Origin: Dimargaris cristalligena
Lineage: Eukaryota
Length of the DNA: 59,150 nucleotides
Direction: 5' to 3'
Assembly (NCBI GenBank): GCA_003614675.1
Contig: ML002248.1
Span: 1 to 59,150, forward strand
Below, piece after piece: positions 1,098 through 44,513 of the stretch (position 1 is its first letter; the number at the start of each line of letters is the position of its first letter). The notes beneath the pieces are model-generated. The model ran no database searches. It was given only the letters and a program-made list of their open reading frames with translations, and was not told the origin of the DNA. The translations under genes were made by a program, and so were the position numbers.

Positions 1098-1762
1098 GGA
1101 TGGGGAGATTTACCGCGCTGCTACTATCTCACTATGCTTGCTTGGCAGAGCACATACAACCACTACTTAAGAAAGGGAGAGAGCAGCATGCATACCGTGA
1201 CCCTATCAGTGAGTGAGCGGCCTATCTCTCTATCCCATGCTGTCCAATCCGGTAGTGCACCCTATATGCTATATGCGCCCTTTCCCTCCCCCCGGGTTAA
1301 TATAAAACCCCGTCCCGGCCCCTTCACCGATTTTCTCTCCCTCATTGTTTCAACTCGTCGCATACACACACTTCCCCACTCTGTGTGCTCGCTTTTCTTA
1401 GCTATTCTATAACCATACCCTATTTATTGCCGTCTTTCTCCCCTTTTGTAGCACAGCCCCTGGCTCGTCGCAACTCCCTCTCCCCCCCTTCTCTTGCGCC
1501 CCTTTCCCTTTGCTTTTGCGTGAGGGGGACTTGTTTCGCTAAACCTTCTATATATATATATCAATCATTATTCCTGTCTTTCCTCTTCCTTGGAGGATAA
1601 TCCCCACACACACTCTCTCCCTTTATTTGATTTGTTTAGTGCGCTTTTATTTCCCCTTTTTATTATATCTTTTTTTCTAGATACCAGACTACTCTTCTTT
1701 ACTTACTTACTTCTCTTTTACACCGCTCCCCGTGTGTGTGTCTTTTCTCTCTTTTTTGGGCC

Positions 1763-19386: not shown

Positions 19387-22300
19387 ATGGTTGCCTTTGC
19401 CTCTGCCCCGATTTCCCACTCCATGGGTTTCCTTTTGCCCGTCGTTCCTATGGAATATCAACCTGACATTGACCTACCCCTCGGCAAGCCCCGTACCAAC
19501 CCACCGGGCTACGCGGCCTGGTGCTATGGTGTATCTTTTCCCGATTTGGATCTGCTCCATCACGACCAGTTCAAACAAGGGTGCCAATTGGCGATGGCTA
19601 CTCTCCTAAGCCGTTACTATCGCCAGCCCGCGGTCGCCTTTGCCCACTGGCAAGGTCCCGTCGGGCCAAATATATTTGTTGACCAGTTTAATGGAGAACT
19701 TGACTTGGTCCTCGCCAGGATGAATCCCGATACCCCTGTTTCCGCTATTAGCCTGCAACACCTTGCGCCTGATTATCTCCCTACCTTGTCAGGCCCAGTG
19801 GTTGAGGTGGTCCTCCATAGCGACGCAGACGGCTCCAGCACGCTTACCCCCATGTCCGAAACCAATATCGGCTACAATCAACCCAAGGAGGTCGAAGCAA
19901 ACTCGCATATTACTGAACTATTGGCCCAAAGCACCGCTCACCTGGTAGTGAGTTGCGCACTTGGCCAAGGTCATTTTCAGATCACTGTAACCTATGCCCG
20001 GGCCTTGTACCGTGATTCAGCCGTGGCGGAATTTACAAGTCAGTTCGGAACGGTCCTTCAGGCAGTTGCCCAGGCCCTACTGGACGATCAACCCACCCTC
20101 GTGCGCGAAATTCCGTGGGTCAGTGACCGCGAACTAGCTCGCCTATCCGACTTCTCGCACTCAGGCCAGCCTACTCGCGCGATTGGCCGCCCGGTCCACC
20201 ATCTATTCGGCGACTGTGCCCAACTTTACCCCGACCATCTAGCCCTGGTTGATGGCTCGAATGAATGGACCTACGCTCAGCTGGACTATGCCAGTTCCGA
20301 ACTGGCCCGGGTTCTTGTGGCTCAATACAGTGCTTGCCCTGAAGTTCGCTTCGCCCTACTCATACCTAAATCAATTGCTTATATGGTGACCATTTTGGCG
20401 GTTTTGAAGTCCGGTGCTGCCTACGTGCCCCTTGATCCCGATTACCCCACCGACCGAATCCAATTCGTTTTAGAGGATAGTGATGCAAGCTTGTTACTTG
20501 TGGACGAGTCCAGTTTTGGTAGGGTAGCTAGCCAGTTTAATGTACCGACAATGACGGTGAATCCGTTTGTGCAACAACCCATATCTGGGGTACTCTCTGA
20601 TTTCCAACCGTTTCTCTCGGCTCCCAGCGATCTGGCCTACGTCATCTATACCTCAGGTACCACTGGCCGTCCCAAAGGAGTTTTGATTGAACATCGCGGT
20701 GTGGCAAATTTTGCCACTGATCCTTACTTACGCAGAGAATACGGTCCAGGCCGTCGGGTCTATCAGGCAGGATCCGTCGCCTTTGACGGCATTCTGGTGA
20801 ATACATTTCGCGCCCTCTGTGCTGGTGGTACGCTTGTTATCCCCACTGACAATATACTAGAAGACTTGCAGAATATACATGTGGGCACACTTACGACTAC
20901 CTTTCTATCTCGTCTGGACCCCAAGGGTTTCACTAATTTGGAAACCCTGGCAATCGGCGGGGAGTCCCTTCTACCTGACCAACAGGCTCGGTGGACACCC
21001 CACTGCATTTTGGCCAACCATTACGGTCCAACTGAAACGACAGTCTACAGCAACTTGGCCGCCATCGGGCGCGACGATGACATCACCATCGGCCGACCAA
21101 TTGGCAACGTCATCAATTTGGTGGTTGACGATGAACTTCAGTTAGTACCTGTCGGGGTTCCCGGTGAACTTCTCATTGGGGGGATCGGAGTGGCTCGGGG
21201 TTACCAGAACCTACCTGAGTTGACCGCCCAAAAGTTTATTCCCAATCCGTACGGGGAGGGCCGGGTGTACCGCACGGGGGATTATGTCCGATGGCTCTCA
21301 AACGGAACAGTGGAATTCCTCGGTCGTATCGATAACCAAATCAAACTACGTGGGTACCGGATTGAGATTGAGGAAATTGAGAATGTGGCGAGTCAATTCC
21401 CCGGACTAAAACAGTGTGTGGCGGCGGTGGTTGAGGACACTTTGGTGCTCTACGCCAGTCCTGAAGACCTCGAGCCAACCAGTCTATTGGACTATTTGAA
21501 GGATCGATTATCCAAGCAAATGGTACCTGAGCTGGTAGTACCCGTGCCCAATTTTAAAACCACCATATTGGGTAAACTGGATCGTAGGTCTCTGCCGTCC
21601 ATTGGTCACTTGCTGTCAAAGAACTCTTTTTTATCCCCTACTGGGTCGGATACCAATGGTCCTCAATCGGAAGCCGAGGAAGACCTTCGACGAGTGTGGG
21701 GCAAGGTTCTACAGCGTGACCCCGGCCGTATTGGTACCACTGACCATTTTTTCAAAGTCGGTGGCGACTCGATTTCGGCCATCCTTCTGGTATCCGAGTG
21801 TCGGCAATTGGGATATCAGCTGACCGTGTCTCTAATTTACCAGTATCCTGAGCTATTCCAGATGGCAGCACAAGTTCAACACCTCTCCTCCATCGACAAT
21901 ATCAACGGGGTACAGTTCAGTCTGTCCGAAATCGAGTTCCAGCAAGTTACGGAGGAGCTAGGTCACCGGGGGATTTCATCATCCGAAGTTGAGGTTCTAC
22001 TCCCTTGTATTGGGGTGCAGGGTGGTCTATTAGTTGGGCTAGGTGTAGATCCCTCTGCGTACACGGTTCAAATATCTTTGAAACTTAATGGCTCTCTGGA
22101 TTACCACCGGCTAACCCAGGCCTGGAACGCCGTCGCCAGCCAACATCCCCCCCTCCGAACTGTGTTTGTGGAATCATCCGCCAAACGGTCGCAAGGTTTT
22201 GTTCAGGCCGTGATTCGCTCGCCTTCGGATGTTTGGACCCTCGGCAATAAGCCCTTAGCCTGTCTTGATAGTTTTTTTACCAACAACTTGCGACGCGGTT

Positions 22301-25300
22301 TCGTTCTACAGGAGCTCATGATCCGTAATTTTGTATTTCCCACCGCTGATAGTCAGGTACATGATGTCGTTATTTCGGCCCACCATTCGCACCTAGACGG
22401 CTGGTCCATGTCGCTTCTTCTCCAGGCCTGGATGGCCGCCTACCACCACCCTGAGATATTGGCACCCTCACCACTAATTAGCTTCCCGACGGTTGTGGAG
22501 TACCTAAGTCAGATGGATAACACTCAAGCAGGTGAGTTTTGGTCAACCTACCTACGCAATGCCCATTCGACACCAGCGCCCATGCTCTTCCCGGGGTCCA
22601 GTGGAGCATCGGGTTCGGCGACCTACTACACCGTTATTGATATTCCCAAGACCCAAATGCAGCAATTTACTCAGAGTGTAGGGATTACGCTGGCCACCTT
22701 GTTTCGGGCTGCCTACGCTTTAGTCCTGAGTCGTTTACTCGATCAAGACGATGTCATATTCGGAGTGATTCTGTCTGGACGAAATTTAGACTTATTGGGT
22801 ATGGACCAGGTCATCGGTCTCTGTATCAACACACTGCCGTTCCGGGCATGCCTAGGCCAGTCGCCTCTCTACTCTTGGTTACAGTCGCTTCACCAAGCCC
22901 AATCGAACATGATCCAATTTGAGCACTCAACGTTGCCCGATGTTACCCGGTGGGCCTCCACTGGCCAATCTGGGCCACTCTTCCACACCCTTTTAGGATT
23001 TGAGAATTACAACGGCTATGCGGCTGAACCGTCACACCACATTACCCTATCCGATCTCCGGGTTCACGAGGCTACGGAGTACCCACTAACCGTCGATTTT
23101 CTTGTCCAATCCACAGATATCCAGGCCAAGGCTCTCTATAGTACATCGACCTACTCGGAGGAAGCTATCCGGCACTTGGTCGGAATGATCCAGACCGCTG
23201 TTGAGCAGATTATATTGGCGCAGCCTGGGACCACTGTGGACCAACTAACACTCATGACTTCGCCATCGAGTCACTCTATTGTATATGACCAAGAAGAATT
23301 CAGTGCTGCATCAGCCTTGCCTGCCCAATCGTTGGCCAAAACCTGGGATACGATCATACTGGAATACTCCGAACATCCGGTTTATATTTCGAAAGGACAC
23401 GTTCTGTTGTATGGTCAGCTGGACCATTTAGCCGATGGCCTTGCGTTGCAATCGGGCCAAATTCTCAAAGTGCCCCGCCCATCAATCATGGCTCTTGTGG
23501 AAAGCGTTGAACAGTACATGGTCTGTTTAGTGAGCGCGGTCAAGATGGGGGCCCGCCTCACACTTCTAGCACCCCCATGTACAATTGACCAATTGGTGGT
23601 GTGCGTCAACTTGACAGCGAGCCAGATAGCATGGCTACCGTCGGCCAAAGCCGAGGAAATTCGACCGTTCCTGAAAGGGGTTGTACCATTGATTACTGTG
23701 CCAAGTGCAATTGATGAGTCCATCAGCCGCACCCTTGCGCCTCGTGGATTCAAGCCCCTCATTGATCGACAGGACCCCAGCCTGACGTTCACTTCCAAAA
23801 AGAATTCGGATGACCTGGTTCTATCTACCATTAACGGTTCGTGTATCCGGTGCACCCTTGCCTCAACGCACCATTACACCTCCGATAAGGCTGGTATTAT
23901 TATCGACCACTCGTTATCCCTTGATACTCCCCAGGCTGCCTGGCTCATTCTCTCGAGCCTGACATCGCATGCGACGGTTCTATCACACACTTCCCCTCTT
24001 GACGAGCATACCAAATCATCCTCGTGCCATGTGATGACTGCTGATGCTCTACACAGTGATTTGGGTGAGAGTAATAGGTTGGTTCTTTGTGACCTGGCCC
24101 AAGCCCACCAGTCCGACTGCATTAGTCTAGTCAAATCCACCGACATCTGCATATCGTTTATTGAGTCCATCTTTCATGGATACCAACAAGTCACTAAGGA
24201 GCAATTGACGTCCCAGTCTTTCCCCACCGCAGACAAGCCATCCAATAATTATTGCCTGGACGTGCTGGACGGTCACGGTCATCCCTGCCCCCCAGGAGCT
24301 GTTGGTCGCTTAACCTTCACCAGTCCGGTGCCCCTTGACCATTCAGCCCCCCAAAAGTACCTGATCCTTGGCTATCGCGCCGACGACAACCGGATCCACA
24401 TGCTAGGCCCTGACTCCCAGAGAGTAGTTGTTAAAGGCCAGCATATACATCTTGGTATACTGACTCGAGCACTAACTGAGGCTGGTGCTCTTTCCCCACA
24501 GTGTATAGTGCTACCCGACGGTCGACCAGTTGCCCTAATAGCCAATACAGCCGAAGTGGACTTGACTCGGCTTAAAGAATTCGCAACCCCACCTGCCATC
24601 CCTCTTGCTCTAGTACCCCATGCCATCATTTCGATCTACGCCTTCCCCCACGTAGCCGGCCTTAGTGACCATCATCTGGCGTTCTTCGTACAGGCTTATC
24701 TCACCACCCTCACTCTTCGCCACTCTGAGTCATTGTTGGAAACAGAGTGGTGGCTCACTGTGGTAGTGAACGAGCTGTGTGCCTCCCCATCTCATTCAAA
24801 CGACTATACTACAACTAGCCTCCTTCGCACCTCATCGGAAGCCACACTGGTCCAGTTGGAAATGTTTCAATATCGCATTCGCATTAAATTCGGTATCAAC
24901 ATGCCCCTGGGTGACCTGGTCAAACACGCTGAACTACGAACACTGGCTTCTACTCTACTGGACCGCATAAACCGGCTCCCATCTGCATATTCCGGTGATT
25001 CGGGTGTCGAAGAGGTCAGCATCAGCGTACCAGTTTCCTCACAATTAAATTTGCGGAGTCAGGCGGTTACCGATCGTCAGCATCAAATATGGTCCCTTAG
25101 CCGGTTGGGGCACACCCCTTCAGATTTCTACCACCAGTGTGTGATAACTTCAGAGGTACCACTCCAGCTGGAGGTTGTCCAGCGGGCCGTCAACAACCTA
25201 TCCGCCACATTTGAATCGCTCCGTTGCCAGTTTATATCAGTCCGAGGTGCACTCACTTGTACTGTCTTACCCCAGGTGCGAACTGGAATCTCTGAGACCC

Positions 25301-34300: not shown

Positions 34301-37300
34301 CGTGTTGTATTGCCCTGACCCTCCAGCAACGCGGATTCAGCCCCGGTAACCTTGCCGCCCTGATCTTTACCAAGTCAGCTGATTTTATATTCAGCTATCT
34401 GGGAGTCCTTTTGGCCGGTGGCGTGTGTATCCCAATGGATGCAGGCAATGCCCTTGACCGCCTACAATACATGTTTGGGTTGTTAGACAGCCCGTGGCTT
34501 ATGACCACTGTTAGCCATTATAAAAACTGCAGCGATCACATTTCGGTGATGGACAGTCAGTGCTGCTTTGTCGATACCATGGACTACAGTAAGATTGTTG
34601 TCGATTTGTTCCGGCCGGATACCTCTCGCACGTCCTCGGACTTGGCCTACATTGTGTTCACGTCAGGGACCACCGGCCGGCCCAAGGGAATTCCCGTGCG
34701 GCATGAGTCACTCGTCAACTTTACCGTATCAAATTGCGAAACCATCCAGCTTGACACTGAGTGCCGTTTCCTACAATTGCTGAATATTTCATTTGACGGG
34801 TGCCTCCTCGAAATCTTTGGTGCATTCCATTGTGGAGGTACGCTAGTACTCCAGGATGGGAATCTTCTCGACACCCTAACTCGGGTTGACACCTGCTTCC
34901 TCATTCCATCAATGCTGTCAGCCATTGATATCGAGACGTATCCCAATCTAAAAACAGTATTCATTGGTGGCGAACCTGTTCCACTTAATATCGCCTACCA
35001 GTGGTGTGAACGTGTCCGCTTATTCAATATTTACGGACCAACGGAAATCACAATCGTGTGTCACACTGACCAAGTATATAGCAGTGAGCCGCTCTCCATC
35101 GGCCGTTCACTAGCCAATACCCAAGGGTATGTCCTTGATGACCAGCTCCAACCCGTGCCTGTAGGTGTCCCCGGAGAACTTTGCATTGGTGGGGTTGGGG
35201 TCAGTTCAGGCTATTGGAAGCAACCTGAACTCGCTGCCAAATCCTTTGTTCCTAATCCATTCGGACCAGGTTGCCTGTATCGTTCTGGGGATATGGTTTG
35301 TTGGCTTTCCAGTGGCAAGATTCAGTTCATTTCGCGTAAAGACTTCCAAGTCAAACTGCGCGGTTATCGTATCGAACTGGGCGAAATCGAAAACGTCGCC
35401 TCGTCAGTGGATGGAGTTACCAATGCGATAGCCTGCGTATCCCAACAGCAACTCATTCTCTATATAGCCCCCGGGTCGGTTGACACAGGGGCCCTCAGGA
35501 CTCAGCTTACCGTCAAACTCCCGCAGTACATGGTGCCTAATTTCATCATTCCACTGGATTCCATTCCCATGACCACTGTAGGTAAGGCTGATCGCAAGAC
35601 TCTACAGGCACGGGCATTACCAGAAGATACCACTGATGAAGCCATTGATATTGACTCGTTGTCTTCGATTTTTCAACTTATGCGAGCGGCCTTGGTCGAC
35701 ACCCTCAAGATTGATCCTCAACGGGCCACTCCATCAGCCTCGTTCCTCCGACTTGGTGGGGACTCTATTTCAGCCATTCAGTTTTCCAACCGCTGTAAGC
35801 GACTGGGCCTCCGACTTTCAGTAGCCGATATTCTTAAATACCCCCAGTTATCCGTTATGGAACAGCGCGCCCATATGGTTGACACCAATAATCTACCGAG
35901 TGCCCAGTTTATAGATCCCGCCGGGCCGATTCCGTTTACTGCCGTGCAGCGATACGCCTTGAAGCAATATCGGTTTATCAACCAATTCAACCAGTCCATG
36001 CTTCTCAAGTGCCGCCAGACCCTAACTCGCACCACTCTTGCCCAGACTCTGACTACGTTGATGGCTCATCACGATATTCTTCGGGTCCAACTTGAGCATT
36101 CCAATGGACAGTGGCAGCAACGGGTGATATCTATACCCGCCGGCTCATCTACTTGGTCAAACAGGTTCTTATCCATTGAGGAAGCCACGCTCACCCTCGA
36201 TGAATACCCTGCCTGGGTGAGTCAAATACAGCGGAATATTTCCATTGAGCACGGGCCGATAATGGCCTGCGGCCTATTAATGTTGGATGGTGAGCAGCAT
36301 ATTTACCTGACTATTCACCATTTTGCGGTCGATTTTGTCTCCTGGCGGATTATTCTCGAAGACTTGGAAGCCCTGTTGACAAACCAGGATTTGCCCGCCA
36401 AGACTATGCCGTTCCGAGACTGGGCCACCCAGGTCCATACTTTTGCGCAGACTCTGTCCGAATCAATCTGGCCAGTGGAATTCACACCAGCTGACTCCAT
36501 CCCCCTGGACTATCCATTTTCATCTGCGAGTGACCTAGGTACCCCTCTCGCAATAACCTACCATTCGTTCGAAGTCCAACAAGCATCACTTGGCCTCGAT
36601 TTGTCCGACACTCTATATACCGAGGTTTCCCCTACCGTAGGGGCTTCACCTCAAGAATTTCTGATAGCTTCTCTTCTTCTCTCTCTACAAAAAACCTTTG
36701 GACTTTCCGTAATCGAGTTAGAACTGGAAGGCCATGGTCGTCGGACCTGGGACTCTGCCATCGACATCAGCCGTACGGTAGGCTGGTTTACCTCCATCTA
36801 CCCAGCTTTATTCCACCTGAACCAGGCGGAAACCCATCATGCTTTTGGACACACCTTGGGTTCCTTGGCCCTAGTCAAACAGCGCATGCGTTCGATTCCC
36901 GACCATGGCTTCCCGTATAGTCTCCAGCGCTACCTCAAGGGCACCTCCCCTTTGTCGGCTCCGGCTATCAATAGGGCGGCACCAGAAGCGGGCATGGTAC
37001 CTTCAGATGACTGGAACCGTATAACGTTCAACTACTCAGGACGGTTCGAACAGCTGGAGGCCCAGAATGCATTCTGGCGCCCCCACCACATCGAAATGGG
37101 TTGGACCGACGATTGGAGCAAGGACGAGGTTTTCAGTCGCGCACTTAGCGTGGCCTGTGACTATACGGTTGGTGAAGGCCTCGTACTTAGTGTAATGTAT
37201 TCTAACAAACTTCACCATAACATAACAATCCAGCGATTGGTCGATCAGTGGCGTACCTCTCTCGAAGAGCTCATTCTCGAATGCAAGGTTGTTCCTGCAC

Positions 37301-40300
37301 CATCCATTGTGACAGCTAGCGATTTTTCTTCGGCTCAACTTACTGAATCGGATTTTGCCAAGATGGTTCAGGATGACTTACCCTTATTGGACTTGATATT
37401 GGCCGATATTGAGGACATCTACCCCTGCCTACCAGTTCAAGAAGGTCTACTGTTTGCCACCCTCCAGGACCCGGCCGCTTACATGGTCCAGCTAGGGTTC
37501 AATATCAGTGGCCAGCTTAATGTCGGTCGCTTTTATCAGGCGTGGAACCAAACTGCGCGAGATCACCCAATCCTTCGTACGCGCTTCTTAACCGCCAGTG
37601 GGTGTGATGCCAGTAAGAACCTCCAGGTTGTGGCTAGGGATTTTAATGCCCATTGGCTTATTCGAAGCTGGGAGAAGGACTGCGCTGATACTATGCGAGA
37701 CCAATTCTTCCTTCAAGAGCGGACTACTGGATTCAACCCCGACCAGCCTTGGATCCGGTTTGGTCTTTTCCGGACGGCCCCTAATTCATTTAAACTATTG
37801 GTTTCGGTGCACCACGCCCTGATCGATGGCTGGTCCGTCGGGTTGCTACTCCATAGTGTCTGCTGTAACTACTTCGAGGACCCTTTGCCTAAGGCAGTAC
37901 ATTACCGTGATTTCGTTGACTATATTGGGAACCAAGATAATGCCGTGGCCAAGCGGTTCTGGTCCGATAAATTTTCTGGAGTTGGAGAGCCAAGTTTATT
38001 AGTACAAGCGAATCATCATCCCGCCTTCCCAGCCCTGCGACCCAGTGACACTGCATTTTATGGAACCGTCGAAAGGTCGGTACCGATTTTGGAGAAGATT
38101 AATAAGCTGATTAGTACCAATGGAGTTACCCTTTCGACCCTTTTACGAGTAGCAATGGCGGCGACTCTTCACCGCCACACCGGATCTACTGACCCAGTAT
38201 TTGGTGTGGTGGTCTCGGGCCGGAATGTCCCTGTGGAAGGTGTCGAGAACATCATTGGGGCGTGTATCAATACCATTCCCTGCCGAGTGGCCCTGGGTAA
38301 CAATCCGTCAGTCCGGGATATTCTACAGGCCGTGTACGCGACGAGCACCCAGACCCACGGTTTCGAACACTGTCGGCTTACGGATATCCATCGCTGGAGT
38401 GGCCTTAGTCAAGATCGTCCGTTATTCAACACCCTCCTGGTACTGGAGAACTACCCGGAAACTTCAGCGAATCCGAATCTTCCGTTTCAATTGGAACTTG
38501 ACAGTTACTGGGATCCCACGGACTTCCCACTTGCTGTCATTGTCCATACCCAAGGAGATCAGCTCCAATTTCGAGTAACCTACCGGACATTGGATTTTAG
38601 CCCCGAGTTCATTCACTTATTTGCTGACCATTTCATTACCACATTATCGTGTCTACTGTCTGCCGACGCCAGTAGCCCACTTTCAGATATTCAGATTCTA
38701 AGTCCACTCGAACGCGAACAACTGCTGGTAAGCTGGGCTACCAATCCTCAGGATTTCCCCCCAGTCTTGGCTCATGATCTCTTCAGCCAACAGTGTCAGA
38801 GTGAACCACACGCCGTGGCTCTCATCCATAACGGCCAAAAATACACCTACACGCAACTGGATATGGCTGCTAATCGACTAGCCCACTCACTGGTCCTATT
38901 GATACCCTGTGGTTCCGACCGTATAGTGGCTTTAGTTGCCGACAACTGCCCGGAACTCATTATAGGGCAACTGGCCATTTGGAAGACGGGCTGTGCATTT
39001 GTTATTTTGGCGCCTGACTATCCCCTCGAGCGACATCAATTAATCTTGAAAGACACCCAAGCGATCGCCATTATGGGCAAACCCTCCTGTCTCTCCGCTA
39101 TAGACGACCTCGGACTAAATGTACCTATGATACCGATAAACAGTGATTCCCTTTTTACAGATGGGACAACGAACGTATATCTATCGCCGGCCATTGACCC
39201 CTCCCATTTGGCGGCTATCATCTACACATCGGGCTCGACTGGTATCCCCAAGGGTGTCATGCATGAACACCACGCACTAGCCAACCACTGGCAGGGTATG
39301 GGTAGTATTACTAACATGACACTCGGTGCCATCACTCCAACCCTCGTTACCCCCACCTTTGATGTGTCCCTATCCGAGATATGGTCCACATTGTCCTTTG
39401 GCGGTACCCTTCTAGTAAGCCAAGGGGATTACGAAAGTGCCCTTTCTCAGGCCACTCGAGCCTGCTGCACTCCTTCCCTACTGTCCAGCTTTGAACCGGC
39501 CAATTTCCCCAACTTACGCCAAGTTACTATTACGGGTGAGCCAGCCAACCAAGGAATAGTAAATAGATGGGCCGACTCGGTTGACCTCATCAACTGGTAC
39601 GGCCCTACCGAAGTGGCCTGCGGATCCCACTGGTTCCGACTCCAGGCCAACAAGAAAATAATCCCCATCGGTGCTCCACTGCCCAATGCCACTGGCATTA
39701 TCCTAGACACCTACCTGCGTCCGGTCCCTGTCGGTGCTGTCGGCCAGCTCTACTTAGGCGGCCGTGGTGTGGCCCGTGGCTACCTCAACCGCCCCGAACT
39801 TACCCAGGAGAAATTTATTTTGAGTCCATTCACTAGTGAGCGCATTTACCAGTCGGGTGATTTGGCCCGCTGGCTACCCAATGGCCAGATTGAATGTCTC
39901 GGCCGGATTGATAATCAAGTCAAATTGCGGGGGTTCCGGATTGAACTAGGCGAGATTGAGAGCGCCCTGGAACATCACGCCGCCGTGGCCCAAGCCTGTG
40001 TTGTTATCCAGGACGACACCCACTTGGTCGGCTACATCGTTCCCCCTTCTGGCCAATCAACCGCTATTCTGGACTCTTTAAGATCCCGGCTACCCTACTA
40101 CATGGTGCCCTCTGTCCTGGTGGAACTTGCCGAATTACCACTGACCCGGGTGGGTAAAGTGGATCGTAGGACCCTGCCCAAACATGACTTTGCGGCCATT
40201 AGTAACAGCCACAAGGCCGCCCAAGTCAGTCCAGCCGAAGCCCAACTCATTGGCCTAGTCGCTGAAACCCTTCGGATTGATCCGAGTGTTATTTCACCAG

Positions 40301-41787
40301 CGGCCACCTTTTTCCAAGTCGGTGGCAACTCCCTGTCGGCAATCCAATTAGTATCCCGCTGCCGTCGCCTGAACCTTCAGCTGGCCCTAATGGATATCAA
40401 CCGATCCAATACGATTACCTACCTTGCCGAATTAACCTCCGCTACGTCCGATTCCATCGAAGTATTTGATAGGGATGCCCCTGTTCCCGCTGATTCGGAA
40501 TCACGAGCGGTACGACTCACCCCACCCCAGGTGGAGTTGTTCGACCTTCAACTAGCTGACCCTCACTTCTTCCCGCTAGCCACCATGTTTGAATCCAGTG
40601 CTCGATTTAGCCCTGAGCAGTGGCAAGCCGCCTGGACTAAGGTGGTTCAGCGCCACGATATGCTCCGGGCCCGTTTCCTGTCCATCGACGGGAAAACAGT
40701 GACCAAGTTTGCCGATTTGGATGATCTATCGTCCACCTGTTTTAAATATCACCAAATGACGGATATCCGCGATGCGCTGGCCCAACTCAACAGTATTAAC
40801 CACCTGATTAATTTTGAGACCGGTCCAATCTCCCAGATTCGAGTATTCGATATCAATGGCGTTCAATACGTCTACATTGCTGTCCACCACCTGGTCTTTG
40901 ACTATCTGTCAGTCCAGATTGTCCGGGAAGACCTTTCGGCCTTTGTAACAGACCAGACTGTGGAACCTCTGACCCATTCATACAGGGCGTGGGCAGACCA
41001 CCTCTGGTCCCTGGCCCAGTCCGTGGACCCAATGAGTATCGACTTACTTCCATCCGTCTGTATTCTGTCTTCTGAATTATCGGTGGATGGCACTCCAATG
41101 ACCAACGAAACCCGGGAACGTGTGGTGGTCCTAATCGATCAGAATGCGACCCATCGCCTCATGACCACTGTGGCGCAACAGCTCGGCGCTACGCCCATTG
41201 AATTAATTTTAACGACCCTGGTTTGTGCCTACTACCGCCAGTTCGGACTATCCCAGATGGACATGGCATACGTAGGTCATGGTCGCAGAGATCCCCGTGG
41301 CCAGTGCGATGTCTCTCGGACTGTCGGGTTCTTTGCCTGTCAGCTTCCACTAGTTTTCCAGGGAGCAACGAATGGCAATCTGATGGACACACTGCGTGCC
41401 GTTCAAAGCACGTTAAGCACGGGCGTAGATAACGGGTTCTTATATACAGTAGTCAAGAATTTACATTGCTTCACCAAGGATCAGGTCGAACTACAACAGC
41501 AGTTTGATGTACAACCCCAATTCGGCTTCACGTATTTAGACGACATGGCTGTTCGTGATTCGTCAGATGCCGATATTATCTTGGTTGAACGGTCAGCGAT
41601 GCTTAACGACTTGCGCACTGCAAAAAGCCAAAACAAGTACCCGTATTTACTCGACTTTGGGGTGTGGAACACCACAGAGGGGTTGGAAATTATTACCAAT
41701 TTCAACTCGAGGCAGTTCCGAATGGATACCATGAGGGCGTTTAACTCGCATTGGAAAGAATGTCTTCTCGAAGTGTCCCAACTTTAA
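19387..41787 (+). CDS. Multimodular nonribosomal peptide synthetase, 7466 aa, intronless
   Basis: Five intact A domains (SG[T/S]TGxPKG, YGPTE, [T/S]GD and a terminal GK-x-D lysine) at about 20190-21600, 26410-27810, 31000-32420, 34200-35610 and 38770-40180. T domains with GGDS at ~21760, 27976, 32566, 35755 and GGNS at 40321. C domains HHSHLDGWS (22381), HHALIDGWS (30034), HHALLDAWS (33247) and HHALIDGWS (37810). E domains HHLVVDLVSW/ESHGR/TVGWFT/FNYLG (~28150-29520) and HHFAVDFVSW/EGHGR/RTVGWFT (~35930-37290). Degenerate A-T-C at ~23330-26310. E-like terminal domain at ~40510-41780. Confidence 0.98.
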   Translation: MVAFASAPISHSMGFLLPVVPMEYQPDIDLPLGKPRTNPPGYAAWCYGVSFPDLDLLHHDQFKQGCQLAMATLLSRYYRQPAVAFAHWQGPVGPNIFVDQFNGELDLVLARMNPDTPVSAISLQHLAPDYLPTLSGPVVEVVLHSDADGSSTLTPMSETNIGYNQPKEVEANSHITELLAQSTAHLVVSCALGQGHFQITVTYARALYRDSAVAEFTSQFGTVLQAVAQALLDDQPTLVREIPWVSDRELARLSDFSHSGQPTRAIGRPVHHLFGDCAQLYPDHLALVDGSNEWTYAQLDYASSELARVLVAQYSACPEVRFALLIPKSIAYMVTILAVLKSGAAYVPLDPDYPTDRIQFVLEDSDASLLLVDESSFGRVASQFNVPTMTVNPFVQQPISGVLSDFQPFLSAPSDLAYVIYTSGTTGRPKGVLIEHRGVANFATDPYLRREYGPGRRVYQAGSVAFDGILVNTFRALCAGGTLVIPTDNILEDLQNIHVGTLTTTFLSRLDPKGFTNLETLAIGGESLLPDQQARWTPHCILANHYGPTETTVYSNLAAIGRDDDITIGRPIGNVINLVVDDELQLVPVGVPGELLIGGIGVARGYQNLPELTAQKFIPNPYGEGRVYRTGDYVRWLSNGTVEFLGRIDNQIKLRGYRIEIEEIENVASQFPGLKQCVAAVVEDTLVLYASPEDLEPTSLLDYLKDRLSKQMVPELVVPVPNFKTTILGKLDRRSLPSIGHLLSKNSFLSPTGSDTNGPQSEAEEDLRRVWGKVLQRDPGRIGTTDHFFKVGGDSISAILLVSECRQLGYQLTVSLIYQYPELFQMAAQVQHLSSIDNINGVQFSLSEIEFQQVTEELGHRGISSSEVEVLLPCIGVQGGLLVGLGVDPSAYTVQISLKLNGSLDYHRLTQAWNAVASQHPPLRTVFVESSAKRSQGFVQAVIRSPSDVWTLGNKPLACLDSFFTNNLRRGFVLQELMIRNFVFPTADSQVHDVVISAHHSHLDGWSMSLLLQAWMAAYHHPEILAPSPLISFPTVVEYLSQMDNTQAGEFWSTYLRNAHSTPAPMLFPGSSGASGSATYYTVIDIPKTQMQQFTQSVGITLATLFRAAYALVLSRLLDQDDVIFGVILSGRNLDLLGMDQVIGLCINTLPFRACLGQSPLYSWLQSLHQAQSNMIQFEHSTLPDVTRWASTGQSGPLFHTLLGFENYNGYAAEPSHHITLSDLRVHEATEYPLTVDFLVQSTDIQAKALYSTSTYSEEAIRHLVGMIQTAVEQIILAQPGTTVDQLTLMTSPSSHSIVYDQEEFSAASALPAQSLAKTWDTIILEYSEHPVYISKGHVLLYGQLDHLADGLALQSGQILKVPRPSIMALVESVEQYMVCLVSAVKMGARLTLLAPPCTIDQLVVCVNLTASQIAWLPSAKAEEIRPFLKGVVPLITVPSAIDESISRTLAPRGFKPLIDRQDPSLTFTSKKNSDDLVLSTINGSCIRCTLASTHHYTSDKAGIIIDHSLSLDTPQAAWLILSSLTSHATVLSHTSPLDEHTKSSSCHVMTADALHSDLGESNRLVLCDLAQAHQSDCISLVKSTDICISFIESIFHGYQQVTKEQLTSQSFPTADKPSNNYCLDVLDGHGHPCPPGAVGRLTFTSPVPLDHSAPQKYLILGYRADDNRIHMLGPDSQRVVVKGQHIHLGILTRALTEAGALSPQCIVLPDGRPVALIANTAEVDLTRLKEFATPPAIPLALVPHAIISIYAFPHVAGLSDHHLAFFVQAYLTTLTLRHSESLLETEWWLTVVVNELCASPSHSNDYTTTSLLRTSSEATLVQLEMFQYRIRIKFGINMPLGDLVKHAELRTLASTLLDRINRLPSAYSGDSGVEEVSISVPVSSQLNLRSQAVTDRQHQIWSLSRLGHTPSDFYHQCVITSEVPLQLEVVQRAVNNLSATFESLRCQFISVRGALTCTVLPQVRTGISETQLSTSQSLSMDKLFSDEVKFNLDRGVLSQVNLYHFPTTTEGGAASAICLRIHDIAADWQMFSKMVNHLTMGLYGISPNNSEPLVTKLNPGYHAVKGTDTSYWTTLLSDPPTELTLPLDHARPLLPSFRSATVHLTIEPKLVSSLASLKSAGPFAQGDIWLALFAVFLRRLTGQDDIVIDYCGLEDPPNGQVGGSTEQPATNLPVRCSGNWPAHIPQLAENINLQRHQSMSHPIPSIDFYSSFVDHLGLNRLSSSLARVRISLHQGSHEKSGTNGSQITYPDNSQSLFPYDLELVIRESTLGHSCHLLFNPDILESSTAKRLLSNFLHYAQECLCSEMSWSDASTVSTKESRVLLQEFALGGLHPDQMAVESPAGVLCQFNRMAALYPNCSATEISGQVWTYLDLVDRIHLVAAGLRDAQIQPGDKIGVIVTNHPNTVAGMLAAWVVGAVYVPVDHKLPVKRQKYVIEAACCKVVLNATDSPSQLPNTLVLSELLEGNGDFGNRSNIYNSRPDDLAYVIFTSGSTGLPKGVMVTHSNLDHQVGNPVFQDFQVAGQRVMAGTAPGFDVFILNSLLPLCNGSTLVFYGDNLAETLRQVDQTWLVPSVINRLNPSDYPNLKKLCLAGEPLSRELVDKWSIIPDIYNGYGPTETTIISHFTRVPPTGTIPIGPPIFNYECYILDSQLQLVPIGAIGEILIGGVGVSCGYINRSDLNPTAFIENTFTGRGKLYRTGDLGRWLTNGQVECLGRMDSQIKLRGFRIELDEIRSVLMRQLGVQNCVVFVHGQFLVGYVFPESAANSNGLHIALADSLPSYMVPSYFMGLPTVPLTANGKCDTKFLQSHFTEYLASQRKQAPSSNLALDLSSRPLGALTEALADVLGLALAQINIQLSFVKLGGDSISAIQVSSKCRQLGFTLPTSMILGSKSLCELVGSMEVISPTVGQTALHQPIQYRTPFPFTPVQQWFFDHPWRNPHHFNQSFALELTQTLSAPQIESALLRLINHHDILRCQFTQDVSHSPNRWSQCILPPFASLPIPVVEVTAPLSDCPGHFLSIQSSLDISQGHHMAAGLITLSEHNIDSSSDTVSHFAVSSQASPRQLLYLTIHHLVVDLVSWSILLEDLARLLDGQLPVPQHLSFVTWATELVDWAKETAHVADLSLAPMILASFLPLSSPDALAFNTQRNSQYLSITLDKINSDALLGAYDLPIQPLELMFAGIFQALYSLTQASALCVFNESHGRHSWESSLDPSHTVGWFTALVPCQVQADAGTSTSDFLKLAKQALRSSNGTNGLQYGLQRIVNCSKVEASNDRPYLPIEVVFNYLGHTMDYGTLTQQGRAPWAPRPELTAGLAVCDADELRTQILEIIGYPTSEGLVFMVRYCPQVIATGIIESLLGCFRDSLVGMVQAIQQSPSPPLWTPTDFPDLQATLPELTKLESELATIGLTPHDVEDLYPMLPMQQGMWTATAKDPSEYLVQLAFTVTGVSNVDRLEAATQAVVSDYTVLRTMFVTTWSNFHCQGVQVVTREPRFGWQIINEWSDVDSICEADFMQSNKRRGFGPNEPLLRVLVNQLSANVIRYLLSIHHALIDGWSIGILISRLRAHLQNNAGIQLVRPPVFRDYVAHLQKSSKEDAKLFWSEYLRGIEQPTDLELPKPARKCNSPIAELKMTLFQNVSPITQLAHRMGITPYVLVKSAWALLLSRYTGQPDVIFGNTVSGRALPLADIESHLGCLINTVPFRVHADESMSVAQWVTAIHDNSQQVISFEHHHISEINTWVEGEIRPSDLFNTLVVYESYPETEINDRDHSVIFTDTEFLESSDYPLTLVVLMEKGQLNACLKWNSQQFGSTYIDVMARHLFTLFNGLVSALSDTDGQVRVQDLPMLSPNERAVVIEKFASRHLTIDPGACVPDLFTRSAQIRPNVIAVEYEDTKWTYAYLHSQALNLAQRLLVRGVPRETPIGLLIDRIPSTIAAFMGLQLSGAVLVPLDPTFPIERIRYIVEDCNIGLVLTNMADQSKLDTIHLALTQVEIQPIDPLLLPLQLAQDQLPILPHIHSSDLSYIVYTSGTTGRPKGVQIEHCLMGNFVQQLESTVGISAGLRLMQNMAMTFDGALLEIFTSLCKGATLVLRTDLLDTLPKVNGLFATPTVLASLDPTKYPNLQMVISGGEALPQEVAKRWAHHCRVFNMYGPTEVLASHTVEYRLGDVMTIGYPVPNTQGYILDRFLHPVPIGVRGEIYVGGAQVTRGYVNLPGLNAARLIPNPFSGSGNMYRTGDSARWLPNGTVEYFSRHDDQVKIRGHRIEPREIEAVLLSHPDVQSAAVVIISQSIYGFVCPASVSIGSIKLHIGRILPAYMNPKTIFIIEMLPCNTNGKTDKHALATRIAELTVMTTGRAITAPLNSVQALVVEALSQTLDIPSVEIDIYDSFFQHGGDSISAIRLSSLCRDRGLYLSIAQVFKCSNIIELAECASDHAMSDNLPEAHNFAHYEPYSLLGEVGDPSSVVKYLLHEASSQLKMDLDNITDILPASGLQLGFLISTLKDPSAYMVQESFTISGDLDLDRLQQAWYLLAEHHDILRTKFFRPESLSSHSFLQVITKRCDIEWSVHTDIVDDWSTLEKTYFEIDRRRGFTFDGPLLRMGFFTSPATGDLRHLCFLTFHHALLDAWSQNIVLTQLVDLYHGTKPTPSTQFSSYISHLQSTNPSQLQKFWQTTLENAQSTPPIHFPVHLPEPLDCNYGIYRTTLSLNLSSLHAFCRQQSITLNSLLRSVWALTLSRYLGLSSEVSFGVLTSGRNVPVPGVQEMVGMCINTIPFRASLDQSTSVTNFVQRLHRQSGELTASEQCGLVDIYKWGQINSETKLFNSLMIYDNFPPSAPSTSNPDITLELSDVQNFTEYAYTVSFFDNSDNLDCHLVYDMTHCDDTYACHLIRFIDHCLSMMVHAPCLSLGELMILPIDEAQLVHGWAQGPVREFPQKQWLAYRLFSQHVSSRSEAVALETSNHRFTYAEVYHRSCCIALTLQQRGFSPGNLAALIFTKSADFIFSYLGVLLAGGVCIPMDAGNALDRLQYMFGLLDSPWLMTTVSHYKNCSDHISVMDSQCCFVDTMDYSKIVVDLFRPDTSRTSSDLAYIVFTSGTTGRPKGIPVRHESLVNFTVSNCETIQLDTECRFLQLLNISFDGCLLEIFGAFHCGGTLVLQDGNLLDTLTRVDTCFLIPSMLSAIDIETYPNLKTVFIGGEPVPLNIAYQWCERVRLFNIYGPTEITIVCHTDQVYSSEPLSIGRSLANTQGYVLDDQLQPVPVGVPGELCIGGVGVSSGYWKQPELAAKSFVPNPFGPGCLYRSGDMVCWLSSGKIQFISRKDFQVKLRGYRIELGEIENVASSVDGVTNAIACVSQQQLILYIAPGSVDTGALRTQLTVKLPQYMVPNFIIPLDSIPMTTVGKADRKTLQARALPEDTTDEAIDIDSLSSIFQLMRAALVDTLKIDPQRATPSASFLRLGGDSISAIQFSNRCKRLGLRLSVADILKYPQLSVMEQRAHMVDTNNLPSAQFIDPAGPIPFTAVQRYALKQYRFINQFNQSMLLKCRQTLTRTTLAQTLTTLMAHHDILRVQLEHSNGQWQQRVISIPAGSSTWSNRFLSIEEATLTLDEYPAWVSQIQRNISIEHGPIMACGLLMLDGEQHIYLTIHHFAVDFVSWRIILEDLEALLTNQDLPAKTMPFRDWATQVHTFAQTLSESIWPVEFTPADSIPLDYPFSSASDLGTPLAITYHSFEVQQASLGLDLSDTLYTEVSPTVGASPQEFLIASLLLSLQKTFGLSVIELELEGHGRRTWDSAIDISRTVGWFTSIYPALFHLNQAETHHAFGHTLGSLALVKQRMRSIPDHGFPYSLQRYLKGTSPLSAPAINRAAPEAGMVPSDDWNRITFNYSGRFEQLEAQNAFWRPHHIEMGWTDDWSKDEVFSRALSVACDYTVGEGLVLSVMYSNKLHHNITIQRLVDQWRTSLEELILECKVVPAPSIVTASDFSSAQLTESDFAKMVQDDLPLLDLILADIEDIYPCLPVQEGLLFATLQDPAAYMVQLGFNISGQLNVGRFYQAWNQTARDHPILRTRFLTASGCDASKNLQVVARDFNAHWLIRSWEKDCADTMRDQFFLQERTTGFNPDQPWIRFGLFRTAPNSFKLLVSVHHALIDGWSVGLLLHSVCCNYFEDPLPKAVHYRDFVDYIGNQDNAVAKRFWSDKFSGVGEPSLLVQANHHPAFPALRPSDTAFYGTVERSVPILEKINKLISTNGVTLSTLLRVAMAATLHRHTGSTDPVFGVVVSGRNVPVEGVENIIGACINTIPCRVALGNNPSVRDILQAVYATSTQTHGFEHCRLTDIHRWSGLSQDRPLFNTLLVLENYPETSANPNLPFQLELDSYWDPTDFPLAVIVHTQGDQLQFRVTYRTLDFSPEFIHLFADHFITTLSCLLSADASSPLSDIQILSPLEREQLLVSWATNPQDFPPVLAHDLFSQQCQSEPHAVALIHNGQKYTYTQLDMAANRLAHSLVLLIPCGSDRIVALVADNCPELIIGQLAIWKTGCAFVILAPDYPLERHQLILKDTQAIAIMGKPSCLSAIDDLGLNVPMIPINSDSLFTDGTTNVYLSPAIDPSHLAAIIYTSGSTGIPKGVMHEHHALANHWQGMGSITNMTLGAITPTLVTPTFDVSLSEIWSTLSFGGTLLVSQGDYESALSQATRACCTPSLLSSFEPANFPNLRQVTITGEPANQGIVNRWADSVDLINWYGPTEVACGSHWFRLQANKKIIPIGAPLPNATGIILDTYLRPVPVGAVGQLYLGGRGVARGYLNRPELTQEKFILSPFTSERIYQSGDLARWLPNGQIECLGRIDNQVKLRGFRIELGEIESALEHHAAVAQACVVIQDDTHLVGYIVPPSGQSTAILDSLRSRLPYYMVPSVLVELAELPLTRVGKVDRRTLPKHDFAAISNSHKAAQVSPAEAQLIGLVAETLRIDPSVISPAATFFQVGGNSLSAIQLVSRCRRLNLQLALMDINRSNTITYLAELTSATSDSIEVFDRDAPVPADSESRAVRLTPPQVELFDLQLADPHFFPLATMFESSARFSPEQWQAAWTKVVQRHDMLRARFLSIDGKTVTKFADLDDLSSTCFKYHQMTDIRDALAQLNSINHLINFETGPISQIRVFDINGVQYVYIAVHHLVFDYLSVQIVREDLSAFVTDQTVEPLTHSYRAWADHLWSLAQSVDPMSIDLLPSVCILSSELSVDGTPMTNETRERVVVLIDQNATHRLMTTVAQQLGATPIELILTTLVCAYYRQFGLSQMDMAYVGHGRRDPRGQCDVSRTVGFFACQLPLVFQGATNGNLMDTLRAVQSTLSTGVDNGFLYTVVKNLHCFTKDQVELQQQFDVQPQFGFTYLDDMAVRDSSDADIILVERSAMLNDLRTAKSQNKYPYLLDFGVWNTTEGLEIITNFNSRQFRMDTMRAFNSHWKECLLEVSQL

Positions 41788-42982: not shown

Positions 42983-44513
42983 CTAAGTTCCAGCCTCTAG
43001 TGATGCACGAGGGGTCTCGCTGGTTTGATCCACTTTAATATCGGCCGGCACTTTCAGGGAGTCGGAGAATCGGGAGCTGACGTTGGGTTCGGGGGCCGGC
43101 CTTAAATTATACACAATGATGCCGATGATGATTCCCACGAATGCGAACGGATAGAGCACGTGGATCTATTTGAAATGTCGGAAATGTAGCCCACGGGACG
43201 AACGGACATGGTCGGAGAGGCATTGCAAGGGATGTCAACAAAGACATACCACCACACACGTATCAAATAGTGGATAAGAGGCGGTATCGATGTTAGTACG
43301 GGTGACCGGAGATTAAAGGTCATCTTTCGGATCAGTCTGGAGCCTAAATATGGCCAGTAAGCCCAACACTTAGGTATATTCGTTTTAAGAATAAATCGAA
43401 GGAAGGGCCAATTATGGATTTTAAACTTACCCGGTAATGGAACAGGAAGAGGCCAAACAGGAGCCCGTAGAAATCCGAGGTTAGGAGGGAGATGTTAAAG
43501 AACGTGGCGGAACTCAGGCGGAATAGGTAGGGAGTGACCGAATACATGGTAAATAAACTGAGATCAAAGAGAACCACGTAAAGCACGGCGGGGCGGGTCC
43601 ATTTGGTATTCGCGATTTCATTACGTTCTAAAATGGCCAATTGAATCCCGTTGACAATAGTCCCAAAGAACCCCAAATGGCCAATGACTTCGTAAATAGG
43701 GAACTGCCGCACGGAAAATTCCTCGAGAATATTGGAGACACCGTAGAGGGTAGCACCCAATAAACAAAAGAGGTCGCCTTTGAGGGGGTTGGAGCCGGCG
43801 TAGTCCCGGTCGGTGATGGAGTCGGCCACGACTAGCAGAGCCATACCGACGAGGCATACGAAAACCCCGAGGTACTGGGTAATATGAAAGCGCACTTTAA
43901 GCAGTAAATAACTAAGGACCACCACCACGGGGATCGCCCACGTGTCCAGCAACATGGCGCTCAGCAGGGAGGTGTATTGGTAGGCCTTGACCACAAAGTA
44001 GTTGCCCTCCACGTCGACAATGGCCAAGCCCAAATACATCCAGCCCCGCCGCCGGAGAATGCGCATCCAAGTCCGCCACCCTCGCCGATAAATAGTGTAG
44101 GGGAGGTAGACGAGGGTTAACAGGACGTAGTTGAGGAAACTCTGGGTGGTGGGGATACTCACCCCATGCTCCTGCGCCAATTGATTGCATACGGAGGTGC
44201 TGGTAATGCAGAGGGACAGCAGCTGGCCAATGGCGAGAATGCGAAGGGTGTGCCGCCAGTCTTGGGGACAGAGGCGGGACTTGACCCAGGCCCAGCGGGT
44301 CAGGGGTTTCTTGGGTTGCTGGAATCCGGCCAGGTCCGGGTCGTTGCTCGCGGAATGGGTGGAAGAGTCGCCGTCACCAGTAGCCTGGGTTTCCCCACTG
44401 GGCCGGCCGGGACCAATGGACAGTACTTCGCACGATTCAACTGTAACTCCAGGAAATGCACTAAGGGTGCCCTTTTTGGTGTCCAACGAAGGTGGGTCGG
44501 GTTCAACTGCCAT
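42983..44513 (-). CDS. SLC35F1/F2-family (DMT superfamily) solute transporter; 2 exons, ~421 aa
   Basis: Exons 44513-43431 and 43165-42983 (GTAAGT...AATAG). Motifs GQLLSLCIT, PTTQSFLNY, DVEGNYFVVKAYQYTSLLSAMLLD and SSATFFNISLLTSDFYGL. Exon 2 supplies the last TM helix (IHVLYPFAFVGIIIGIIVYN). Confidence 0.92.

Follow-up and report, generated by a model that had tools for sequence, protein, structure and literature searches.

We analysed a stretch of 59,150 nucleotides (nt) from the mycoparasitic fungus Dimargaris cristalligena (assembly GCA_003614675.1, contig ML002248.1, positions 1–59,150, forward strand; here called the window), and found that positions 19387..41787 (+) make up one stop-free open reading frame (ORF) of 7466 codons plus stop. 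It is the sole ORF of at least 300 amino acids (aa) within 18000–43000, and simple arithmetic, (61/64)^7466, makes a 7466-codon open frame by chance impossible. The encoded protein has the hallmarks of a modular (type I) nonribosomal peptide synthetase (NRPS): adenylation (A) motifs, carrier (T) domains with GGxS, and condensation (C) domains with HHxxxD between modules. The ORF encodes a complete NRPS of the fungal type that is probably functional. What deserves attention is a conserved dead module inside the protein and a terminal domain derived from an epimerization (E) domain, rather than the bacterial origin that a preliminary description of this DNA had proposed.

Pfam was run on the protein in 15 slices, each holding at most one domain of a kind, and its calls were combined with a motif scan, profile alignment by hhalign and a structure model. 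The domain order is [half-C remnant]-A1-T1-C1-[a*-t*-c*]-A2-T2-E-C-A3-T3-C-A4-T4-E-C-A5-T5-E', where a*, t* and c* are the parts of the dead module and E' is the terminal domain:

19387..20181, +, aa 1-265: N-terminal region, remnant of the C-terminal half of a condensation domain, without HHxxxDG
20185..21606, +, aa 267-740: A1, intact (Pfam E = 1.8e-66; motifs; code DGVTAGHVYK)
21664..21888, +, aa 760-834: T1, Ser795 (Pfam E = 4.8e-11; GGDSI)
21970..23271, +, aa 862-1295: C1 (Pfam E = 8.1e-48; HHxxxDG intact)
23284..24876, +, aa 1300-1830: a*, dead adenylation-like domain (Pfam 16.7 bits, below cut-off; hhalign; motif columns; model)
24877..25038, +, aa 1831-1884: t*, carrier remnant (no GGxS serine; hhalign to T profile 80%)
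25039..26376, +, aa 1885-2330: c*, dead condensation-like domain (Pfam 69.7 bits; HDIAAD at aa 2023)
26419..27819, +, aa 2345-2811: A2, intact (Pfam E = 3.1e-65; motifs; code DVLWCAGIIK)
27880..28104, +, aa 2832-2906: T2, Ser2867 (Pfam E = 1.5e-9)
28126..29556, +, aa 2914-3390: E1, epimerization (HH 3073-3074, Glu3203)
29614..30936, +, aa 3410-3850: C3, after E1 (Pfam E = 1.5e-58)
30997..32424, +, aa 3871-4346: A3, intact (Pfam E = 5.9e-68; code DGLFIGMLAK)
32470..32694, +, aa 4362-4436: T3, Ser4397 (Pfam E = 6.6e-10)
32818..34092, +, aa 4478-4902: C4 (Pfam E = 4.3e-54; motif HHALLDA)
34192..35616, +, aa 4936-5410: A4, intact (Pfam E = 2.1e-63; code DGLFFGIIVK)
35659..35883, +, aa 5425-5499: T4, Ser5460 (Pfam E = 3.4e-10)
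35899..37329, +, aa 5505-5981: E2, epimerization (HH 5644-5645, Glu5781)
37390..38676, +, aa 6002-6430: C5, after E2 (Pfam E = 2.1e-57)
38761..40188, +, aa 6459-6934: A5, intact (Pfam E = 2.5e-59; code DVSCTTWCGK, conserved in relatives)
40225..40449, +, aa 6947-7021: T5, Ser6982 (Pfam E = 2.9e-10; GGNSL)
40489..41784, +, aa 7035-7466: terminal E-derived domain (HH 7167-7168; Val7296 at the Glu position; 'SW' Trp lost)

The motif scan found five copies each of the adenylation motifs A3, A5, A7, A8 and A10, and five GGxS carrier motifs (serines at aa 795, 2867, 4397, 5460 and 6982). Pfam called five AMP-binding domains (E = 2.5e-59 to 5.9e-68), five PP-binding domains (E = 4.8e-11 to 1.5e-9) and eight Condensation-family domains (E = 2.6e-19 to 1.5e-58). 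The Pfam extents are aa 278–606 for A1, 766–828 for T1 and 888–1295 for C1, followed by the sub-threshold AMP-binding remnant at 1327–1428 and the weak Condensation match at 1892–2324; the other Condensation-family matches span 2924–3303, 3417–3840, 4486–4878, 5515–5960, 6009–6425 and 7042–7464. C1, C3 and C5 have the motif HHxxxDG and C4 has HHxxxDA. All five A, five T, four C and two E domains retain their catalytic motifs, from which the five modules appear able to load and carry amino acids. The five intact A-T units counted in the preliminary description are thereby borne out, as is its statement that thioesterase (TE) and reductase (R) domains are lacking, neither family being found in the 15 Pfam slices of the 7466-aa protein. 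The N-terminal remnant gives a weak Pfam match (E = 0.041) and aligns at 97.3% hhalign probability, aa 25–233 falling on columns 202–427 of the C profile; a hidden Markov model (HMM) of this region finds it in most relatives.

The protein is 100% identical to hypothetical protein BJ085DRAFT_36903, deposited at 7319 aa from the same 59150-bp contig, which corresponds to the ORF minus two in-frame stretches:

27922..28176, +: deposited intron 1, 255 nt = 85 codons, GT..AG, stop-free, spanning the T2 core including GGDSIS
35128..35313, +: deposited intron 2, 186 nt = 62 codons, GT..AG, stop-free, spanning motifs A6-A7 of A4

Because their removal would cut T2 and part of A4, both deposited introns are probably spurious and the gene a single exon; the earlier word 'intronless' agrees with the stop-free 22.4-kb frame and is to be qualified by the deposited model. 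The deposited models of this gene (P0002) and of its paralogue P0004 (BJ085DRAFT_40295) both lack T2 at the same place. This shared gap points to a systematic error of gene prediction, in which in-frame 'introns' are placed within NRPS domains and which would distort automated domain counts for the D. cristalligena genome.

HMMs made from the protein's own domains were run over 121 proteins, leaving the duplicate model P0002 out of the counts of relatives. Among the matches listed are at least 23 Dimargaritales relatives of at least 4106 aa, and in 19 of the 23, from Dimargaris, Tieghemiomyces and Dispira, a* and c* are both present, in the shared order half-C remnant, A-T-(E)-C, a*, c*, A-T and so on. 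Two of the four relatives without the full pattern are N-terminally cut and start with c*. Tieghemiomyces parasiticus P0127, which is not flagged as partial, also opens with c*, followed by A-T-C-A-T-E-C-A; if that gene model is right, c* can head a separate protein.

As judged from its motifs, the a*-t*-c* unit is catalytically dead, having no ATP/substrate motifs, no carrier serine and no second catalytic His. The a* domain matches the family A profile over its full length (hhalign 98.3%); motifs A3, A4, A5, A7, A8 and A10 are absent from all seven Dimargaris copies, which have conserved residues of their own. For t* the match to the T profile covers only the last 27 columns, and GGxS is absent in all 17 aligned relatives. 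The c* domain matches the C profile (hhalign 98.9%); all 14 family copies have D, E, Q or P instead of the second catalytic His (Asp in this gene), and 3 of the 14 retain the motif Asp. An AlphaFold model of aa 1300–2330, made with 17 relatives, has a mean pLDDT (predicted local distance difference test) of 62.5, lowest in mid-a*. The model matches the DhbF A-PCP-C cross-module fragment (PCP, peptidyl carrier protein) and LgrA with E = 1e-35 to 1e-33 over about 1120–1170 columns, and the unit is thus predicted to fold like an A-PCP-C unit; among the matches of c*, beside many ordinary C domains, is the teicoplanin X-domain (4tx3, E = 7.5e-19). Identity to close paralogues is 54–59% in a* and c* versus 74–86% in the A domains, and between genera 27–31% versus 40–57% in active domains. 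By its distribution the dead module appears ancestral to the family and not particular to this copy. It is old, open in frame and folded, and evolves faster than the active domains, yet not freely, for which reasons a non-catalytic, structural role would seem to be its function.

We built trees from 24 proteins: 8 of 24 from Dimargaritales, 8 of 43 named bacterial ones, 5 of 10 from Dikarya, both from Mortierellomycotina, and one from a chytrid. FastTree was used for 163 condensation-family domains, dropping domain hits shorter than 300 aa, and IQ-TREE (LG+G4, with the Shimodaira–Hasegawa-like approximate likelihood ratio test, SH-aLRT) for 50 rows, leaving out one degenerate long-branched row and taking ten C domains as outgroup; a tree of A domains has 135 rows from the same 24 proteins. 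The E clade has support of 100 in the 163-row tree and 99 in the 50-row tree. Within it the Dimargaritales E, Dikarya E and Dimargaritales terminal domains group together (95, FastTree; 98, IQ-TREE), and the five terminal domains form their own clade (100 in both trees) among the Dimargaritales E domains (96; 91).

E1, E2 and the terminal domain share their solved relatives, the E domains of TycA, GrsA, TycB3, BacC and PvdL. All three align to positions 2792–3234 of PRK05691 (NCBIfam), and C1 and C3 to 3230–3707. E1 and E2 score 33 and 62 bits against TIGR01720, a bacterial model with a curated cut-off of 74.2. E domains have two catalytic residues, the second histidine of HHxxxD and a Glu (H743/E882 in TycA, H753/E892 in GrsA), according to the available part of PMC8905534. 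A Glu column lies 139 residues past the second His in 7 of 10 bacterial E domains, and as this spacing equals that of the TycA and GrsA pairs, it identifies the catalytic column. Of the in-line Dimargaritales E domains 13 of 15 have Glu there, as do all 7 from Dikarya and all 10 bacterial ones. With His3074/Glu3203 in E1 and His5645/Glu5781 in E2, each in a T-E-C setting, both domains are by clade and residues epimerization domains, placed as first described after intact units 2 and 4, and residues 2 and 4 would pass through them.

For the terminal domain, solved E domains match at E = 1.7e-26 to 6e-23 and C domains (LgrA, TycC) only at about 2e-3; none of its 21 solved-structure matches is a fungal CT chain, TqaA included. 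Its hhalign E-values are 1.6e-56 with the E profile and 8e-20 with the C profile. The motif is HHLVFD, and Val7296 stands at the catalytic Glu column. Seventeen terminal domains of the family were collected, two of them too short to use. Among the 15 informative ones Glu is retained in 4 and the residue is non-acidic in 11; 14 retain HH, and none of the 15 has the Trp that follows the motif. A terminal domain of this kind ends seven proteins in the 121-protein set (the P0002 duplicate among them) and 11 of 19 in a second set, and no TE or R Pfam family occurs in the 42 Dimargaritales NRPS proteins listed (23 + 19), with PF00975 absent. These comparisons indicate that the terminal domain descends from a fungal E domain with loss of the catalytic Glu, and that such a domain, its E hallmarks lost in most lineages, is the family's normal C-terminus. 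Because there is no canonical release domain, it would be the sole candidate in cis for release.

An E domain lies between T1 and C1 in 16 of 19 relatives; those without it are this gene, its paralogue P0004 and one Tieghemiomyces protein. C1 groups, with support of 100, with the post-E C domains of P0003, P0005, P0009 and P0011. The kinship of C1 and the E domain in 16 of 19 relatives therefore point to a clean, in-frame loss of the module-1 E domain in this gene. By this domain order, residue 1 should be L and residues 2 and 4 epimerized.

The gene fits a Dimargaritales family pattern: half-C remnant, A-T-(E)-C, dead unit, further modules and E-derived end. Module order is positionally orthologous across Dimargaris, Tieghemiomyces and Dispira, and every one of A1–A5 clusters with its positional counterparts from other genera, from which it follows that the five-module order is older than the genera. 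The gene belongs to a Dimargaritales-specific family that has expanded by whole-gene duplication. Available excerpts of earlier surveys report 27 D. cristalligena NRPS genes with two lineage-specific expansions and 'modular synteny', most of the genes being alone on short contigs (Ahrendt et al., 2018; PMC6784888), 21 NRPS and 7 NRPS-like genes (Tabima et al., 2020; PMC7466969), and NRPS richness in all Dimargaritales with almost no matches to known clusters (Reynolds et al., 2023; PMC9866270). This published expansion, the ancient degenerate module and the E-derived end were missed in the preliminary description. We found no product or domain architecture of Dimargaris or Dimargaritales NRPSs in the literature, of which the supplements of Ahrendt et al. 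and Tabima et al. may show part; and the best identity outside Dimargaritales is 26%, to a bacterial Chitinophaga protein that is the first non-Dimargaritales match by summed score. The earlier opinion that the product is probably uncharacterised agrees with both.

The paralogues P0004 and P0005 (BJ085DRAFT_38103) have the same N-terminal remnant, dead module and module order, and A domains 74–86% identical to those of this gene; P0005 retains the E domain after module 1, unlike this gene, and both paralogues are cut by contig ends. Identity to them switches sharply at domain borders. It is 68–78% to P0004 and 44–60% to P0005 in C1 (aa 841–1320), 47–60% and 51–67% in the dead module (aa 1321–2400), 75–82% and 51–56% in C3 (aa 3481–3840), and 75–90% and 79–88% in A3 (aa 3841–4320). 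Exchange of C units between paralogues, or strong rate shifts, would explain these switches. Recent internal duplication was considered as a sign of shuffling and rejected, since no long DNA repeat was found and the only matches were of 56–66 nt, in core motifs, at 66–79% identity. Of the module shuffling that had been suggested, the switches at borders between paralogues are consistent with a part; the order kept across three genera and the lack of internal duplication speak against the rest. Among the matches listed there is no near-identical copy from the second D. cristalligena assembly, where the matches concerned (P0001/P0003/P0122) reach at most 53% identity at full length and 74–76% in fragments; strain difference or incomplete assembly may account for this. 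For another NRPS, P0010/P0016, the copies from the two assemblies agree at 100% of the 1200 residues compared.

The ten-residue substrate codes were mapped by motif offsets that we take to be those of Stachelhaus et al. (1999). All five A domains retain the Asp and the Lys by which the amino group and the carboxyl group of an alpha-amino acid are bound. The pockets of modules 2–4 are lined mostly by hydrophobic residues, and the code of the last module (A5) is nearly the same in relatives from other species. GrsA (1amu) is eighth among the solved relatives of A1. To our knowledge none of the five codes matches a described one, and therefore no substrate was called.

The flanks carry ORFs for a P-type ATPase (in several pieces, 1640–6084), a sucrase/ferredoxin-like protein, an SLC35F/EamA transporter, a protein kinase, an M20 peptidase, an ATG27/M6P-receptor protein and a helicase. 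These are mostly housekeeping-type families, and Pfam found no recognisable tailoring gene among the flanking ORFs of the window, as had been noted before. Further NRPS exons, or the missing N-terminal C half, were looked for upstream and rejected: eight HMMs of the protein's own domains gave 0 matches at E<=10 in six frames of both flanks. The gene is therefore alone within 19 kb upstream and 17 kb downstream. The SLC35F/EamA-type transporter gene (43344-44696, −; Pfam SLC35F, E = 4.2e-105) is encoded on the opposite strand, 1.5 kb downstream from the end of the NRPS. It may export the product; nothing but proximity connects the two, however, and this family is not a usual one among cluster transporters. 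Four ORFs upstream of the NRPS, of 224–364 aa (9648-10322, +; 12384-13274, +; 14286-15380, −; 15586-16308, −), have no Pfam family at E<=0.001, only sub-threshold matches to domains of unknown function (DUFs) at E<=1, and the 364-aa ORF (14286-15380, −) has no usable protein-atlas match. Overall GC content and codon preferences of the NRPS resemble those of the flanks (relative synonymous codon usage, RSCU, r = 0.83).

We lean, by a modest degree, towards a complete NRPS that skips the dead unit, makes a co-linear pentapeptide L-D-L-D-(L), and releases it by the E-derived terminal domain. The dead unit would have a structural part, as spacer or scaffold. Joining of the residues carried by T1 and T2 would fall to intact C1, after which the chain would be extended co-linearly to the pentapeptide. 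The terminal domain, with its His retained, would accept one substrate, bound to a carrier, and free the peptide from the enzyme; head-to-tail cyclisation in the manner of Dikarya CT domains would be the most plausible route, with hydrolysis as the other. From intact E1 and E2 and the five A-T units, the product is most likely an uncharacterised five-residue peptide with D residues at positions 2 and 4, in keeping with the five-unit line first proposed. That description also had the terminal domain release the product; the domain is indeed the only candidate in cis, it is E-type rather than C-type, and release or cyclisation would be its presumed activity. A further-reaching version, which we offer tentatively, is that the family has recruited an E domain for off-loading, possibly with macrocyclisation, independently of CT domains, and has an obligatory dead A-T-C element as well. 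That element might bridge modules 1 and 2, or might recruit a partner as the glycopeptide X-domain does.

Several points weigh against this pentapeptide reading. No product is known for this NRPS or its relatives, and both the function and the intron-free gene are read from sequence alone. Skipping of a 1030-residue dead module, and the spatial route from T1 over C1 to T2, are likewise presumed. C1 is an orthologue of post-E C domains, yet no E domain precedes it, and because its orthologues accept an epimerized donor (16 of 19), module 1 may be poorly coupled. The terminal domain may still epimerize, with Glu retained in 4 of 15 family members and about one-sixth of activity left in GrsA E892A (in the available part of PMC8905534), or it may be inert, by analogy with the inactive terminal E domain of LgrA (accessible text of PMC10510592). 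In the trees c* lies beside the E clade on a long branch (88, FastTree; 99, IQ-TREE) but it is nearer the C profile by hhalign, which leaves its origin unsettled. The trees themselves rest on 24 chosen proteins and fast methods. Finally, G+C content at third codon positions (GC3) is 0.544 in the NRPS versus 0.62–0.72 in seven flanking ORFs, with a minimum of 0.508 in the dead module; we read this as low expression or relaxed bias, not decisive for foreign origin.

Instead of being skipped, the dead module could divide the line, with c*-capped modules 2–5 making a tetrapeptide and module 1 plus C1 working separately, for example adding a residue in trans or onto another acceptor. The inability of t* to carry and of c* to condense would suit such a split, c* here holds the place directly before an A domain that in ordinary modules goes to the C domain serving that module's T, P0127 begins c*-A-T, and the module-1 E domain was lost while a post-E-type C1 stays. 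A split is nevertheless unlikely in our view. C1 has an intact HHxxxDG and its conservation matches that of the active domains (identity to P0004 is 78% in C1 and 76% in A1), an argument for its having a pair of substrates; fusion of module 1 and the dead module to modules 2–5 is maintained in 19 of 23 relatives; and gene models of low-coverage genomes are unreliable. We give a similarly low rating to a line that does not stand alone, in which the terminal domain is a weak epimerase or inert docking element and the chain is handed to another NRPS or a separate hydrolase. Bacterial terminal E domains (TycA, GrsA, LgrA) do pass their product to a next subunit (PMC10510592), the terminal HHxxxD and some glutamates of the family are retained, and the species has about 21–27 NRPS genes on which to draw (excerpts of PMC7466969, PMC6784888). 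However, contig-end cuts aside, no Dimargaritales NRPS examined opens with a complete C domain, the usual N-terminus being the half-C remnant without catalytic motif; E hallmarks are gone in 11 to 15 of the 15 terminal domains; and no hydrolase-type gene adjoins the NRPS. That the gene is a decaying, non-functional paralogue, its dead module and lost E domain being steps of erosion, we consider very improbable. In its favour are the dead module, where GC3 is also at its minimum, the deletion of one E domain, and the absence of a near-identical copy from the second assembly among the matches listed, whereas P0016/P0010 are 100% identical; against this the 22.4-kb frame is stop-free, the full set of five A, five T, four C and two E domains has its catalytic motifs, and the dead module is ancestral to the family.

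Acquisition of a bacterial NRPS by horizontal transfer followed by module shuffling, the origin first suggested, is the remaining alternative and in our judgement an improbable one. The Chitinophaga match at 26% and the low GC3 could be taken in its favour, as could the identity changes at domain borders, the matching of sampled Dikarya A domains by the A profile in two pieces and of bacterial ones in one, and the short branch that alone separates the Dimargaritales-chytrid group from the bacterial group in the A tree. The trees point elsewhere. C domains of Dimargaritales, Dikarya and the chytrid form one 62-row clade (SH-like support 99) without any bacterial or Mortierellomycotina C domain, and the fungal E clade (95; 98) has no bacterial members. 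In the A tree the groups are Dikarya (30 rows, 100), Dimargaritales with the chytrid (38 + 5 rows, 91), and bacteria with Mortierellomycotina (49 + 13 rows, 98), so that Dimargaris A domains go with the chytrid and are not nested within bacteria. The A and C domains of Mortierella and Benniella do nest in bacterial clades, beside a Mycetohabitans NRPS, which means that these trees are able to show transfer where it is present. The module order shared by three genera and the RSCU correlation with flanking genes also argue against transfer, and Ahrendt et al. (2018) place the A domains nearest a fungal toxin clade, the epipolythiodioxopiperazine (ETP) clade, in the available part of their text (PMC6784888); ETP-type reference domains were outside our tree sample. 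On these phylogenies a bacterial origin of the Dimargaritales NRPS family appears unsupported, and an ancient transfer before the fungal lineages diverged is possible. P0026 (Mortierella alpina) and P0112 (from a Benniella metagenome-assembled genome) group with P0101 (Mycetohabitans rhizoxinica) at support of 96–100 in both trees, which fits a bacterial, possibly endosymbiont-related, origin of Mortierellomycotina NRPSs; because it comes from a metagenome-assembled genome, P0112 could itself be bacterial contamination.

Bacterial-like Mortierellomycotina NRPSs include the malpinin and malpicyclin synthetases. NRPSs of this group (such as P0026) are likewise large and from an early-diverging fungus, and differ by their nesting in bacterial clades and by TE families, neither of which the Dimargaris NRPS has. 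We know of no comparable conserved dead module in Dikarya lines. The Dikarya NRPSs of CT (TqaA) type resemble the Dimargaris protein in starting with an A domain, in having separate E and C domains in succession, in lacking a TE, and in ending with a condensation-fold domain, and their C and E domains share clades with those of Dimargaris. Like a CT domain, the Dimargaris end domain closes, behind the last T, a line that has neither TE nor R; unlike it, the domain is in the E clade with HHLVFD rather than the SHxxxD described for CT domains (PMC10510592). Both Dikarya terminal domains in our sample are placed with C domains. The terminal E domains of TycA, GrsA and LgrA are its best solved relatives and occupy the same place after the last T; they epimerize or pass the residue onward, whereas in Dimargaris there is no evident next subunit and Glu has become Val. 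Skipped modules and the glycopeptide X-domain are alike with the dead unit in being present without taking part in chain extension. Known skipped modules are usually intact. In the Dimargaritales family, by contrast, all members, from three genera, have an entire A-T-C unit that is dead, with no P450 or recruited partner evident. Module skipping has been described for thalassospiramide (PMC10510592) and, in a source available in part, for peptaibol synthetases.

Dimargaritales are the most NRPS-rich lineage of Kickxellomycotina known, according to the accessible part of Reynolds et al. (2023; PMC9866270). They are obligate mycoparasites, and none of their peptides has been identified. This contig is long enough to show the gene alone, and its full frame can be corrected from the DNA, making it a practical candidate for heterologous expression. 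If it is true that the E-derived end releases or cyclises the chain, it would be a new solution to NRPS termination; and if the dead module is needed, it would be a natural non-catalytic scaffold within an assembly line, with a bearing on NRPS engineering. The Dimargaritales expansion is set apart from the story of bacterial transfer that holds for Mortierella and has been proposed for Basidiobolus.

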